Source: Eledone cirrhosa (Eukaryota). Taken from it: a stretch of 64,000 nucleotides of DNA. Location of the stretch: assembly GCA_964016885.1 (NCBI GenBank), contig OZ024756.1, positions 19,778,001 to 19,842,000 of the forward strand, in the 5' to 3' direction. Under the pieces are notes generated by a model. That model was not told the origin of the DNA and made no database searches. It saw nothing but the letters and a program-made list of their open reading frames with translations. Below, in pieces: positions 6,301 through 39,300 of this stretch (position 1 is its first letter; each line of letters begins with the position of its first letter). The translations under genes and the position numbers were made by a program.

Positions 6301-9300
6301 ACTTCCACTCACTCACTCTCTGTTTCTCCCCTTCTCACTTCCTCCCGTTTGGCTAGTAGTGGGTTCTCTTCTTGCTCACATCTCACTCACGTCAGACGGT
6401 CTGTATCCCGATCGCTCATGAAATCCACCCAGCTTATGCTGACCGGACAACCATGTTGCTTGTATATTTTCCTATCTTTGGTTTGCTTTTATCCTTCTAT
6501 GTTGTTTACTTGTCCCCCTCGCTTTACGCGATTTACTGGTCCCAATAACTTTTTTTAGCTATTGCTCGCACCAACCTGAGGTATATGATTTTTAATGCGA
6601 TGAAATATCAATGATGGTTGGCAAATCACTGACGAAGGACTAATTTTATCACATGTAACCCATGTGCAACCACGCAGTATTCTTCTTTCTTCTCATGTTT
6701 TTATATATATATATATATATATATATATACATATACAGTGTATCTCCGGCATTCGCGGTCCCGACACTCGTCGTCCCGTTTATTCGCGGAATTTTCCTTA
6801 GAACCTAACTAATAATTGTTCGTGGAAACCACCGCATATTCGCGGAATCGTAAATATCTTCTACAATATTTTATGGCTTTTTTCGTGGTAATATATATAT
6901 CTAAACTATAATAAAGAAAGGAGTGCGGGACTGCATCCAGAATATATATTTTTTTATCCCGTTTGTAAAATAAGTTGGATTACTTTGAATAAATAATTGT
7001 TTCTACTTTAGGCACAAGGCCAGCAATTACCCAGTGCATTACTGGTACTTTATTTAATCGACCCCGTAAGGATGAAAGGCAAAGTCAACCTCGGCGGGAT
7101 TTGAACTCAGATCGTAAAGGGACGTAACTATGCTGGAAAGCATGGCGTCCGCCCCTCTATCGATACTGCCAATCCACCGCCCTATACTTTGAATAAATAA
7201 TGAATGAATATTACATAATATATTTACTAAATTTCGTTATTCTTGATTAAATATAAATAATTTTGTTGCTTATTTTAAGATTCACTTTTGTAAAATTTTC
7301 AAATGTCAACACTTCCGGTTAGCGATCACTTAAATAAACATTCATATATTTCCGTCACTAATTTTCTCCTAATGCAGTTTATATATAATATCGTCTTTTT
7401 TTTAATGTATCATGGATTACTTTACTGATTACATAAGAGAGTGTAACGCAGTCTTCGTTCAATTTCTATGAATTATATATTGTCAATTACGATTTTATTT
7501 GATGTATCATATCTACTTGCATATATACCTGCGTATAATATCAATATACACAATGCTAAATTATTAATAACAATATATCGTATATATTAATAACAATATA
7601 TCGTATTTACCGGCCTATTGGACGCTCCTTCGCATAATTTTTAATTATATTTTACCTCATATTTTGACTTTTATAAGGCATTTTTATGGACAACGTCCAA
7701 TATTCGCGGGGTTTCGCTCTTCGCGGGTTCTGTAGGAACGTAGCTACCGCGAATACCGGGGGACAACTGTATATATGTGTGTGTCATATACTTACCATAC
7801 AAGTAAGATAGGACAAGACATTCGGTAAGCCCCAGAAACAGGAACGGGAATCCACTGACTGAAGTATCAATCAGATTCAGAATATACATACCAGCCTGGA
7901 AAATGAGACAAACTAATAGAATATGTATGTATGTGTGTATGTATATGTGTACGTATGTATGTATGTGTGTATGTATGTGTGTATGTATATATGTATGTTT
8001 GTGTGTATGTATGTATGCATGTATGTATGCATGTATGTGGTGTGTGTATGTCAGGTCGCCCTCGAGTGCTACTGGTAACATGTAACTCAGTACAACCTGT
8101 CTCGTGGTCGGGTCGTCGGCGACTAAACCGGCAACCCCACCAAATTTGCTTGGTGAGGAGGGTGATATTTGGACACCCTGTGGAATGAAATACAAGATCC
8201 GGAAAGGGGCGGAGTCAACGGCCATCCAAATAGTACTTTTTTTTCCACCTGGGAGTGAAAAGCCCCCAATTGTTGTCACAACACCTTTCTAGAGGAGGGA
8301 AACTCTGAAAACAAAAAAAAAAACAAAAAAACCTGCGGCTTCGGAAGCATCCGATGATGTTAACCAGTTCTTCTTTTCGGGTAGAGTTTTTGATACTCAG
8401 AGAGTGGGAGTGGTCAAGTGCAAGGCCTTTCCCCACTTAAAAAACCTTCAAAGCACAGACATTGCTTGTTCAGTATCTGTTATAATCTGACAAGCGATTG
8501 CAATACTCTTAGCAGAGTTTACAGCCATCATGCATGCATGCATGCATGCATGTATGTATGTGTGTGTGTATGTGTGTATGTATGTATGTATGTGAAGTCG
8601 CGTGGCTTTGTGTTTAGGATATTCAGCTAACAATCGTAAGGACGTGAGTTCGATTCCTGGCGGCACATTGTGTCCTTGAGCAAGACACTTTATTTCACGT
8701 TGATCCAGCCCAATAATTAAACTAATCGTTACAACTAAATTGACCAAATTTGGCACCCCCAATTCAAAAATGCTTCCACCACCCCTGTTTTATGTGTATG
8801 TGTGTGTAAGTATATATATATATATATATATATATATATATATGTGTGTATATGTATGTATGTATATATATATATATAAATCGTCTTACCTGTGTGGTCA
8901 TAGGTAAACCCAAGAGAAAAGACAGAAGACAAACGGTGACCCTGAAGGAGGCTTGTGTCTTCCAATTGTGTCGCAGTTTATCTTGCCATTCGTCCATTAG
9001 AGATGACATTACCGTTTCCACCAGGGAGAACTGAAAAGACGGGATGACAATAGAAAATGTATTATGGTTGTATGTCGTTGGTGGATTGTCTGAATTGGTA
9101 GAACGTCCGATAAAATGGGCATTGCCGTACCATATTTGTACTGGCTCTTTACAGTCTGAGTTTGACCCCACCTTCTCATCCGGAAGTCAATTTTGCCTTT
9201 CATCCTTCCGTCGGTTGATATACATATTATATATATATATATACATATTATATATATATACATATTATATATATATATATATATACATATTATATATATA

Positions 9301-36300: not shown

Positions 36301-39300
36301 AGAAAAAACATTAAAAAAAATGTTAATCATTATTGTTGGATTTTTATACATACACAAGGAGCCTAACATTTGGGGGCACGTCCAGTTTTATCTCCACCAC
36401 TCTTAGTATGTAACCAAACACAAGGCATTTTGACAGACATTTCACGACCCATGATGATGATGATGATAATGATTTCTGATTTAGGCACAAGACCAGCAAT
36501 TTTGGGGGAGTGGAAAGTCGATTAAATCGACCCCAGTACATTACTGGTACTTTATCTTATCGACCCCATAAGGATGAAAGACAAAGCTAACCTCGACGGG
36601 ATTTGAACTCAGAATGTAAAAGGCCATAACTCTATTCCACAAAGCATGGTGTCCGACCCTCTACCGATACTTCCAATCCACCGTCGATGATTATAGTAAT
36701 AATTGTTTCTACTTTTGGCACAAGGCCAGCAATTACCCAGCACACATTACTGGTACTTTATTTTATCGACCCCCGTAAGGATGAAAGGCATAGTTAACCA
36801 TGGCTGGATTTGAACTCAGACCATTAAGGGTTATATCTACGGTGCAAAGCATGGCGTCCGACCCTCTACTGATACTGCCAATCCTATGATTGGCCCTATG
36901 ATTTAGGCACAAGGGTCAACAATTTTAATGGAAGGGTGAAGTCGATTAAATCGACTTCAATGAATTACTGGTGTTTTATTTTATCAACCCCGGAAGGATG
37001 GATGAAAGGCAAAACTAATCTCGGCGGGATTTGAACTGAGAGCGTAAAGGGCCGTAACTCTATGCTGCAAAGCATGGTGTCCGACGCTCTACCGATACTG
37101 ACAATCCAAATAATGGATTCTGATTTAGGCATGCCAACAATTTAAAGGGAAGGGGGAAAGTTGATTACATCGACCTCCAGTACGTAACTGGTACTTTATT
37201 TTATAGACGGCGTAATAATAACAGGCAAGGTTAACCTCGGCGAGATTTGAACTGAGAGCGTAAAGGGTCGTAACTAAATGCCACAAAACCATTTTATCCA
37301 ACGGTCTATCGATACTGACAATCTACCGCCCTCATTCTGCCAAATATTAAAAGGAGAATTCTTACATTGAAACGTTTGTTCTATAAAAAGTACTCCCCCC
37401 CCCCCCAAAAAAAACGGACCGTGAAAAAGTCTGCATTTCTATAATAGTTTCATTTATTGGGCACAAGGGCCGACATATAGGGGACAATACAAAAGACAGG
37501 GACAGTGGGGGTTTACATATACAACGTGTAAACAATATAAATAACAATAACAAAATAACAATAAAAATACAACAAAGAAAATTCCCCAATAGGGGGGGGA
37601 TAACCACCCAGGGTTCACTCAGGTACCCCACCAATCTTGAACCACCCGACACTTCGAGAGCACTCAGGAAGGGCACCCCTCTCCTCCTCAAATTCACCCA
37701 CCTACAGGCCCACTCACATAGGCCATTCTCGCCACTCTGCATTTCTATAATAATATAATACAGTGTTCGATTAAAATGAAAGCAATCTAAATATAGAGTC
37801 GGACATTACACGTGAATTTCCGTAAATAAAACTCCGGAAGAGGCAAGAAATGGACATGAAAAGTATATATTTCTATAGTATATATATATTTCACAGCGAC
37901 ACTCTAGTAAAAAGAGAAAAAAGATGTAAAACGAGACTAACATCATATGCAATGATGATATCTAGGAAGAAAATCTCCCCAATCTAAAATTAACTTTAGA
38001 TCCACACAGACACTAGACGTAACTAATTTAGGATGGTAGACTTTCAGAACACTAGACAGACATCAAACTTTGAAATAGAACACTAAAGAAAAAAGAATTC
38101 ATCACTAATAACTCAAATAACAAAAAAAATAACAAATAAATAAATAATAAAATAAAATAAAATAAAATAAATAATAATACATAAATTATAATAATGAATA
38201 AATAATAACAATAAATAAATAATAAAATAAATAATATAAAAAAAAAAATTAAAATAAATAGAATTAAAATTACAAATTAATAAAAAAATTCAAAATAACG
38301 AAAATAATAAAAAAAAAATCAAAATCAAAAAATAGAAATTAAAATTAGAAAATAAGAAATCAAAAATAAAAATAAAAATAAAAATAAAAATAAAAATAAA
38401 AATAAAAATAAAAATAAAAATAAAAATAAAAATAAAAATAAAAATAAAAATAAAAATAAAAATAAAAATAAAAATAAAAATAAAATAAAATAAAATAAAA
38501 AATAAAAATAAAAATAAAAATAAAAATAAAAATAAAAATAAAAATAAAAATAAAAATAAAAATAAAAATAAAAATAAAAATAAAAATAAAAATAAAAATA
38601 AAAATAAAAATAAAAATAAAAATAAAAATAAAAATAAAAATAAAAATAAAAATAAAAATAAAAATAAAAATAAAAATAAAAAAAAAAATAGAAATAAAAA
38701 AAATAATGAATAAATAAAAAATAAAAATTATTGAAACAAACAGCGAAACTAAAAGTAATGAGAATGTAAACGACGAAATTGTAAAATAAATTAAATGACT
38801 GAACTACGAAATTACAGCCAAATTTAACACCTCTAAAATACTGATAAACAACAACAACAAACAGAACAAGAATGAGAGAAACAAAAATATGGTTTCTTAT
38901 ATAGGTACAAGTCTAGCAATTTTTGGGGAGGGGAATGTCGATTAAATTGACCCCAGTGCATTACTGGTACTTTATTTTATCGACCCCGTAAGGATGAAAG
39001 GCAAAGTTAACCTCGGCGGGACTGTGGGGGAGGCCAGCATGTGGGACCCCATTTTCTCACCATACGGAGAGATGGGGAGGGCCAGAGAGATGGAGGCGAT
39101 GACAGTGGGAGTTCGGCTGTTCTTTCATATTTGCTTAGGTTACAATTGCATCGTGATGGACTTTTATTTATTTATTTTGTAGTCGTATTTGTTAATTGTG
39201 ACCAATCTGGAATCGTCTTAGCTATAGTCTCATCAAGGTCTTTGCACATTTTATCGACCTTGTAAGGATGAAAGGCAAAATTAACCCCGGCGCGATTTGA

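Follow-up and report, generated by a model that had tools for sequence, protein, structure and literature searches.

The window analysed here is a 64,000-nt stretch of contig OZ024756.1 of Eledone cirrhosa (positions 19,778,001 to 19,842,000), whose genome measures 3.0 Gb. It carries two tandem full-length copies of a long interspersed element (LINE), assigned to the L1 clade and probably of Tx1 type, amid numerous copies of a short interspersed element (SINE) that occurs in a short form, SINE-A, and a long form, SINE-B. The SINE and the L1/Tx1 lineage share a 3' end of 26–44 nt. This common end, together with a common ATTAT insertion site and a common target-site duplication of 16 bp, suggests that an L1-type lineage likely copies the SINE. 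The following features were identified; loci with an L-number in the text below are genomic loci compared outside the window.

26808..32635, minus strand: full-length L1/Tx1-type LINE of family A, first tandem copy
20952..26774, minus strand: full-length L1/Tx1-type LINE of family A, second tandem copy; identity between the two copies is 99.67%
30516..32426 (second copy 24655-26565), minus strand: open reading frame (ORF) 1, 636 amino acids, CCHC knuckle, ZCCHC3-type RNA-binding-like features (lead only)
27067..30486 (second copy 21206-24625), minus strand: ORF2, 1139 amino acids, APE endonuclease, reverse transcriptase (RT) and zf-RVT
26808..26833 (second copy 20952-20977), minus strand: LINE terminal motif with GGCC-CTTGT-GGCC hairpin, AATAAA and GAAATC, each followed by (ATT)n
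32472..32499 (second copy 26611-26638), minus strand: 12-bp hairpin in the LINE 5' untranslated region (UTR), about 45 nt before ORF1
26775..26807, minus strand: (ATT)11 at the head-to-tail junction of the LINE pair
32636..32668, minus strand: (ATT)11 that separates the 3' end of SINE-B from the first LINE copy's 5' end
32669..32847, minus strand: SINE-B (long subfamily), directly upstream of the LINE pair
36471..37332, minus strand: head-to-tail chain of four SINEs (long, short, long, long)
37447..37735, minus strand: 5'-truncated LINE copy belonging to an older sister subfamily, 80.6% identical to the best family reference
37430..37446 (3' copy) and 37736-37752 (5' copy), minus strand: exact 17-bp duplication of the truncated LINE
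6998..7184, minus strand: full-length SINE-A whose 5' half contains A-box-like and B-box-like motifs; its identity to the majority sequence is 97.3%
6981..6997, minus strand: 3' copy of the exact 17-bp target-site duplication of this SINE, starting with ATTAT on the element strand
7185..7201, minus strand: 5' copy of the same duplication, exact
6998..7023, minus strand: terminal motif of the SINE, with GGC-CTTGT-GCC as arms and loop and a loop-to-ATTAT distance of 16 nt

The LINE ends, the SINE ends and both exact 17-bp duplications quoted in the initial annotation, which had been made from the letters of the stretch alone, are present as described. Its figure of more than 20 SINE copies in 64 kb agrees with the 28–29 matches found in the window, 21 of 28 of which lie on the minus strand. 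The longer SINE variant near 36465 has its core end at 36471.

ORF1 and ORF2 are open in both tandem LINE copies. ORF2 contains the Pfam domains PF03372, PF00078 and PF13966, and its best solved relative is the human L1 ORF2 protein (ORF2p; E-value 2.5e-57), with R2 reaching only 3e-22. ORF1 shows a CCHC motif in its translation and had no Pfam match; as a lead, its feature-based neighbours in a protein atlas carry zf-CCHC and ZCCHC3-type domains (0.90–0.93). Based on the ORF2 domains and closest relative, together with the CCHC motif of ORF1, the LINE was placed in the L1 clade, and it is an intact and young non-long-terminal-repeat retrotransposon of that clade. Two further L1-clade characteristics were found, i.e. 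the presence of two ORFs and of long duplications (9–20 bp in 13 of 60 truncated copies).

The LINE is probably of Tx1 type, because CCHC-type ORF1s in animals have been linked to Tx1 (in passages of PMC5203782), because its target preference is Tx1-like, and because L1-Tx1 is given as the sole L1-type group among the recently active LINEs of Octopus vulgaris (in the accessible part of PMC13282606). The target preference is seen in the 13 informative duplications of truncated copies, all of which start at ATTAT or at most 2 nt away, and in the ATT repeats that flank 42 of 42 full-length copies. Look-ups in protein clusters and in the protein atlas returned no named Tx1 protein. In a tree that held no named Tx1 sequence, and in which the row for one family (C, see below) filled less than half of the columns, the LINE families formed one supported clade with an Argonauta protein. 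The closest named relative of the RT region is a protein of Argonauta hians, with 71% identity.

Sister families of this LINE are named here A (the family in the window), A2/D, B, C and E, and they share 60–86% identity with A over the C-terminal part of ORF2. The LINE 3' end gave 2210 genomic candidates, the best 40 of which were 99–100% identical; 37 of 39 compared copies were of full length, and family-A copies are about 99–99.8% identical to each other. Young copies were found in family A (at least 99%) and family B (up to 99%), whereas the sampled copies of C and D reached at most 95% and 94%, respectively, each against a single reference. The terminal motif is common to at least five sister families. 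It was present within two mismatches in 27 of 30 loci that had been chosen by the zf-RVT domain and not by the tail, and an exact 21-nt degenerate pattern has 20,338 matches in the genome. When the 3' UTRs of four families are compared, identity rises from 0.35–0.40 upstream to 0.88 over the last 22 columns, a comparison that is partly circular since the references were chosen by their tail. The members of family E (L135, L138, L143, L146, L148, L157, L159, L201 and L205) have kept the hairpin end, with tails and flanks of (ATCT)n or TTAT, and this family likely represents a target switch within the L1/Tx1 lineage.

The LINE census of the genome is incomplete: 150 each of 118,944 RT candidates and 44,774 zf-RVT candidates were scored, and one family each of three other types was read. 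We take these to be CR1-like, RTE-like and R4/Dong-like, respectively, by our own reading of RT motifs and domain layout. The CR1-like family ends in (ATT)n, the RTE-like family in (GAT)n and the R4/Dong-like family in (AAT)n, the latter of opposite polarity. Copies of the CR1-like family (L270–L329) are young, with an ORF of 945 amino acids, 2671 exact tail matches and an (ATT)n tail in addition to a GTGC/GCAC stem, and many of them look internally deleted. Young L1/Tx1 copies such as L006 and L010 often lie tail-to-tail with an R4/Dong-like element of the opposite strand, meeting its (AAT)n end, so that one microsatellite is common to both.

SINE-A is 185 nt long, and its 27-nt tail has 134,745 exact matches in the genome, while SINE-B has about 30 extra bases ahead of the same end. 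Extrapolation from the 71–74 matches in forty evenly spaced 10-kb stretches (400 kb) gives about 550,000 copies genome-wide, and the SINE occupies at least 2% of the genome. It is short, non-coding and of high copy number, with 5'-truncated copies and target-site duplications. Unselected copies have a median identity of 91.6% to the majority sequence. A SINE subfamily appears to have been active recently, because 376 copies are exactly identical over all 185 nt. The box-like motifs suggest a head of transfer RNA (tRNA) type: the head boxes align to genomic tRNA-like genes, albeit with best local scores that were equalled by 5–26 of 500 shuffles in the better rows among 16. No source tRNA for the head was identified among these 16 genomic tRNA-like matches, and a comparison of the SINE with Rfam gave no match. 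The majority sequence has no internal TTTT, which is compatible with transcription by RNA polymerase III.

Two side observations concern the repeats themselves. At L079 and L093, near-identical SINE-A copies with the same short spacer form a tandem array, the SINE thus occurring as a local satellite. Ten near-identical tRNA-like sequences (L352, L354–L362) have five anticodons (GAC, AGC, GGC, GGT and GTC) and a common downstream sequence; instead of tRNA genes, they probably represent a further repeat with a tRNA head.

The initial annotation had described an (ATT)n tail on the SINE. Usually only ATTAT(T) is present after the SINE end, the ATT run having a median length of 6 nt and reaching 12 nt or more in 3 of 50 unselected copies; the duplications starting with ATTAT that it had reported were confirmed. 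The ATTAT(T) belongs to the duplicated target, and the SINE itself has almost no (ATT)n tail.

The SINE-A tail and the last 26 nt of the family-A LINE are identical in 20 of 28 columns, a likeness not reached in any of 5000 shuffles. Family C gives an equal score (19 of 27 columns), and family B has 14 of 26 columns identical, with 62 of 5000 shuffles as high. In the same test SINE-B scores 11 against family C and 10 against family A; 33 of 44 columns are identical between SINE-B and family A, six of these from the ATT tail. The tails of the CR1-, RTE- and R4-like LINEs resemble that of SINE-A at chance level only (2220, 2520 and 4843 of 5000 shuffles as high, respectively). High scores of the SINE against the interior of the RTE-like element were rejected, as they were due to SINE copies inside that locus. 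Among 2253 genomic 26-mers ahead of ATTAT, four matched the SINE-A-tail score, and the 25 that scored at least 5, canonical SINE-A ends excluded, were all SINE or L1/Tx1 ends on inspection.

Target-site duplications were measured for SINE, L1/Tx1 and CR1-like copies, and were counted only when they extended at least 4 nt beyond the ATT run; boundary-free searches in (ATT)n tracts were uninformative, and nine values from full-length young LINE copies proved to be repeat artefacts and were excluded. For the L1/Tx1 set, 84 of 195 LINE ends were set aside (locus edge or internal deletion) and nine as family E; for the CR1-like set, 10 of 30 copies were dropped (locus edge or internal deletion). 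Duplications were found in 78 of 211 SINE copies versus 48 of 1677 swapped flanks (median 16 bp, quartiles 13–18), and in 13 of 60 truncated L1/Tx1 copies versus 39 of 879 in the null set (median 16 bp, quartiles 15–17). The two length distributions are alike (Mann-Whitney p 0.91), and both sets of duplications start with ATTAT. The match in duplication and target that had been noted from one SINE and one LINE therefore holds in the sampled copies; the length of 17 bp is exact at both loci in the window, but is one value in a range of about 10–22 bp.

Twenty of the 376 identical SINE copies were inspected, and 18 of them have exact repeats of 10–21 bp (one within a TA run); 15 of these duplications begin with ATTAT and two with GTTAT. 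In the two GTTAT cases the G seems target-derived, so the junction is fixed and a nick at 5'-ATAAY/R is suggested. The duplication around the SINE at 6998-7184 is real, because its 17-mer occurs only once in each of three paralogous copies of the host repeat that are without the SINE (L228, L089 and L025).

Other copies of this host repeat, a dispersed repeat at about 6650-7550, are filled (L076, L104 and L074). In its paralogues, SINEs truncated to different extents occupy an identical position, which may reflect a hot spot that was hit independently, and at L074 only the SINE and 53 nt of its 3' flank are in common, resembling a 3' transduction. At L255 a SINE and a 53-nt LINE end have a single duplicated site of 18 bp in common. 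Remnants of the LINE of only 26–34 nt, starting at or just before the hairpin, were seen at eight loci (L243, L244, L246, L253, L256, L258, L259 and L156), with duplications of 9–20 bp; most of these come from the set selected for a short ATT run.

These data bear on the proposal that the likeness of the tails is a coincidence between AT-rich ends and that the (ATT)n-tailed CR1-like family mobilises the SINE. That family is young and numerous, and CR1 is a common partner of SINEs (in the sections seen of PMC3747384). However, its tail has no similarity to that of the SINE beyond chance, none of its 20 truncated copies has a duplication (p 0.0003 against the SINE), and the ATT runs upstream of its copies are only 2–8 nt. 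The proposal is largely refuted and we consider it very improbable. The presence of the (ATT)n family also means that (ATT)n held in common, which the initial annotation had listed, carries no weight as evidence by itself.

SINEs and LINEs are stacked in the same orientation. Of 60 position-ordered LINE ends, 12 have a SINE directly after them, versus 44 of 2286 background ATTAT sites, and all 35 SINEs adjacent to LINE ends have the same orientation as the LINE; in family E, none of 14 ends has an adjacent SINE. A reading of the LINE as strictly specific for (ATT)n microsatellites was softened, since only 6 of 26 position-ordered truncated copies have at least 12 nt of ATT upstream. At L044, L055 and L048, an upstream stretch of 18–27 nt of pure ATT is accompanied by a downstream run of 7–10 nt, followed by non-duplicated bases. 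From these observations it seems that an ATT leader and tail come with the full-length LINE RNA itself, the target being the short word ATTAT. At two loci (L140 and L248) a SINE lies immediately next to a short LINE end, the two are not separated by a duplication, and the outer flanks match over 10–14 nt; these are possible template-switch chimeras, weakly indicated as the flanks are ATT-rich. Directly after the second LINE copy in the window (20896-20951) lie (ATT)5, a 14-nt piece resembling the tail end of family B or C, and (ATT)8, either a tail remnant or a product of slippage.

When the ends are aligned without gaps on CTTGT, the LINE has arms GCC/GGC and the SINE arms GGC/GCC, so that the middle pair is swapped and still pairs. 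Compensatory pairs were found between LINE and SINE (C-G versus G-C) as well as between families A and B (G-C versus A-U), and a covariation score of 0.464 was reached by 1 of 500 shuffles (eight rows), with lower scores in slid controls. The distance from the loop to ATTAT is 16 nt in SINE-A, SINE-B and families B and C, and 17 nt in families A and D. Partition-function folds give the hairpin a pair probability of 0.96–1.0 in the LINE 3' end; for SINE-A a value of 0.7 is reached only when its last 40 nt are folded by themselves.

A number of observations weigh against a partnership of the SINE with this lineage, or against recognition through the hairpin. The stretch common to SINE and LINE is short and only about 70% identical, and the AATAAA conserved in the LINE, which the SINE does not have, may serve in polyadenylation. 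Of the 13 LINE duplications, nine belong to copies that had been chosen for their short ATT run, and in position-ordered truncated LINEs a duplication was seen in 3 of 26 copies versus 14 of 50 unselected SINEs (p 0.15). The (ATT)n run after LINE ends has a median of 20 nt, compared with the short run after SINE ends, and an ATT repeat of at least 15 nt lies upstream of 42 of 42 full-length LINEs, whereas none of 50 unselected SINEs has 12 nt or more. The covariation represents only about three independent events. In whole SINE RNAs the pair probability of the hairpin drops to 0.03 (SINE-A) and 0.00–0.02 (SINE-B), and folding z-scores are near zero. The common stem-loop envisaged in the initial annotation is favoured by compensatory pairs but not by the folding of whole SINE RNAs, in which the hairpin would need capture by a protein or local folding.

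The folding data would fit a relaxed mode of L1/Tx1 mobilisation, in which AUUAU pairing and primary sequence matter and the hairpin is a relic of an origin from a LINE 3' end. The stem of the SINE is just 3 bp in about half of the SINE-A copies and most SINE-B copies, and family E, with a different tail repeat and no SINE adjacent to its 14 ends, has nevertheless retained the hairpin. On the other hand, double changes preserve the stem in the SINE and in family B, the CUUGU loop is invariant across LINE families whose upstream UTRs are 35–40% identical, and the terminal motif is narrowly spared by the deletion in which SINE-A differs from SINE-B. We regard the relaxed mode as a rather unlikely, though serious, alternative, and lean slightly towards recognition through the hairpin.

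A strong hairpin is also found shortly before ORF1 in five of the six types of LINE 5' UTR that were folded (outside the window it was noted near the LINE 5' ends at L236, L214, L208 and L220); for a family-B2 variant the fold did not recover it. In contrast to the 12-bp hairpin of family A, that of family B is shorter and has a CUUGU loop and the GGC/GCC polarity of the SINE, with ATTATT 19 nt downstream. The SINE end could accordingly derive from, or mimic, this 5' hairpin, and in a longer comparison the last 45 nt of SINE-A reach a score of 34 with the 5' UTR of family B, compared with 30 for the 3' end of family A (0 of 200 shuffles each). However, SINE-A scores 38 against a family-C 3' end, SINE-B, which is likely the older form, reaches only 32 with the family-B 5' UTR but 42–44 with the LINE 3' ends (families A, C and D), and the loop-to-ATTAT spacing of 16 nt in the SINE fits the 3' ends. 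A 5' UTR origin therefore seems quite improbable, and an origin from the 3' end is preferred because SINE-B fits the LINE 3' ends better.

Taking the evidence together, a partnership of the SINE with the L1/Tx1 lineage appears highly probable from sequence comparison. The initial annotation had gone further and named the LINE in the window as the engine of the SINE. This stands at the level of the lineage, as tail, target word, duplication length and polarity agree between the SINE and the L1/Tx1 elements and differ from those of the sampled CR1-, RTE- and R4-like LINEs, but not for family A in particular, because sister families carry the motif, family C equals or exceeds family A in score, and most SINE copies are older than family A. 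Another LINE that matches the SINE tail better, which had been foreseen as evidence against the pair, does exist marginally, in that the score of sister family C is equal or higher, but it does not belong to another clade. The partner is the lineage and not provably family A, because at least five families carry the end and C matches equally well or better. Different sister families likely served as engine over time; the older ones probably drove the bulk of the SINE copies, and family A as sole engine is unlikely. For the youngest SINEs, family A is the best candidate, because it is young and its tail is closer than that of the other young family, B.

Alternatively, the engine may be an unsampled LINE with a closer 3' end, which could come from a different clade or be an L1/Tx1 sister that is extinct or was missed, the families read here being bystanders that share its target. 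The modest identity to the best family, the small part of the RT and zf-RVT candidates that was scored, and the age of most SINE copies relative to family A would be in line with this. It is opposed by an inventory of 1.86 Mb of sequence, in which 235 of 266 hairpins of SINE polarity have a SINE body upstream, and the other listed ones with a tail-like end are short SINE remnants, family-B 5' UTRs and one chance match in an ORF2. Among the commoner clusters of 12-mers preceding ATTATT, moreover, no additional family with a SINE-like end was found, and the young SINE copies require an active engine to be present. An unsampled engine is thus improbable.

We propose that the SINE is copied in trans by the ORF2p of an L1-clade, probably Tx1-type, lineage, an explanation that as a whole we consider probable. 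In this model the endonuclease would nick the opposite strand at 5'-ATAAY/R, and the terminal motif, likely a CUUGU loop on a stem of 3–4 bp, would position ORF2p on the RNA. Reverse transcription would start 16–17 nt downstream of the loop, at a point that allows pairing between AUUAU and the nicked strand, and a second nick about 16 bp away would give rise to the duplication. Every insertion would leave ATTAT at both ends, which would explain the head-to-tail stacking of elements.

More tentatively, and with less confidence than in this model, it can be imagined that an animal L1/Tx1 lineage reads its own RNA stringently through a CUUGU hairpin at both RNA ends, at the 3' end for the start of reverse transcription and in the 5' UTR for translation of ORF1 or for 5' joining. 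A SINE of half a million copies would then parasitise this system with a 26-nt mimic. The 5' (ATT)n leader of full-length copies would join the target by homology, the lineage thereby making its own (ATT)n microsatellite targets.

Three other local features were observed in the window. An exon-like piece of a sodium:neurotransmitter symporter gene lies at about 7760-7960 on the minus strand (PF00209, E-value 3.5e-5, below the cut-off). The LINE pair and most SINEs share its strand and are possibly located inside introns of that gene. A 55-bp tandem repeat occupies 32988-33486 (9.1 copies, 94% matches), and an open frame at about 44300-44734 on the plus strand, which had no Pfam match, ends in what we take to be a remnant of a Penelope-type GIY-YIG endonuclease.

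The pairing of LINEs and SINEs is a well-established concept. The present pair is unusual because its LINE belongs to the L1 clade, a placement that was absent from the initial annotation. Among 58 LINE/SINE pairs, three SINEs are L1-tailed, in maize, sorghum and Chlamydomonas (accessible parts of PMC3472496 and PMC3747384). As described there, ZmSINE2 and ZmSINE3 with LINE1-1_ZM, and SINEX-3_CR with L1-1_CR, resemble our case in combining an L1-clade LINE and a tRNA-type SINE (putatively so in our case) with a common short 3' end that is conserved across divergent LINE families, and in a hairpin, here a predicted one, with compensatory changes (PMC3472496, in part). They differ in host, which is an animal here, in the length of the common end (about 50–80 nt, versus 26–44 nt here), in the loop (UCU, versus CUUGU here) and in their poly(A) or poly(T) ends, in place of ATT repeats and an ATTAT target. 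Within the literature searched, tail-sharing L1-type pairs were found only for plants and an alga: no title or abstract opening reported an animal SINE that has its tail in common with an L1/Tx1 element, Repbase, Dfam and subscription papers being beyond reach. Bivalve SINEs are partnered with CR1, CR1-Zenon, L2 and Nimb (as far as given in PMC11481361).

Other known systems share single aspects. The crocodilian SINEU was assigned to a Tx1 engine, Tx1-Mar, by target preference and overlapping ages, and likewise shows tandem insertions around a duplicated target (Kojima 2015, PMC4494074, in the passages available). According to the same passages, SINEU has small nuclear RNA heads and poly(A) tails, and no LINE with the same 3' end as SINEU-1 was found; in our case, the 3' end is common to a LINE and the head has box-like motifs of tRNA type. 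The Tx1 families Kibi, inserting in (TC)n, and Koshi, in (TTC)n, are similarly L1-clade elements with an APE endonuclease and a simple-repeat target (PMC4494074, in part). Here the target is ATTAT/(ATT)n, or (ATCT)n for one sister family, and a short ATTAT suffices for truncated copies. Binding of ORF2p to a 3' stem-loop, generally to the stem and specifically to the loop, has its model in ZfL2-1 and ZfL2-2 (Hayashi 2014, PMC4176376, in part). These belong to the L2 clade and were studied by experiment, in contrast to the comparative approach taken here.

For octopuses, partial views of the genome literature (PMC13282606, PMC8967140 and PMC9115989) named no partner LINE for the SINEs. Likewise, the octopus SINEs OR1 and OR2 are named with no LINE partner in the portions seen of PMC4824008 and PMC4758252. 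Compared by description only, they are similar to our SINE, whose head is putatively of tRNA type, in being abundant tRNA-type SINEs of an octopod-like genome. The present SINE may be one of the octopus SINE families of 1994. In that year Ohshima and Okada reportedly described octopus tRNA-derived SINEs, the third family of which is said to be named OK.

Whether the L1 clade was originally stringent and later relaxed to poly(A) is an open question, which has been argued from the three plant and algal SINEs (PMC3472496, in part). If the partnership is true, an animal example with young LINEs and identical young SINEs in one genome would make this question directly testable, with a candidate signal of less than 30 nt, sister families as natural variants of stem and tail, and family E as a built-in control. 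The expansion of SINEs has been described as octopus-specific (in the accessible text of PMC8967140). If true, the partnership would also name the likely engine of a SINE that fills at least 2% of a 3-Gb genome.

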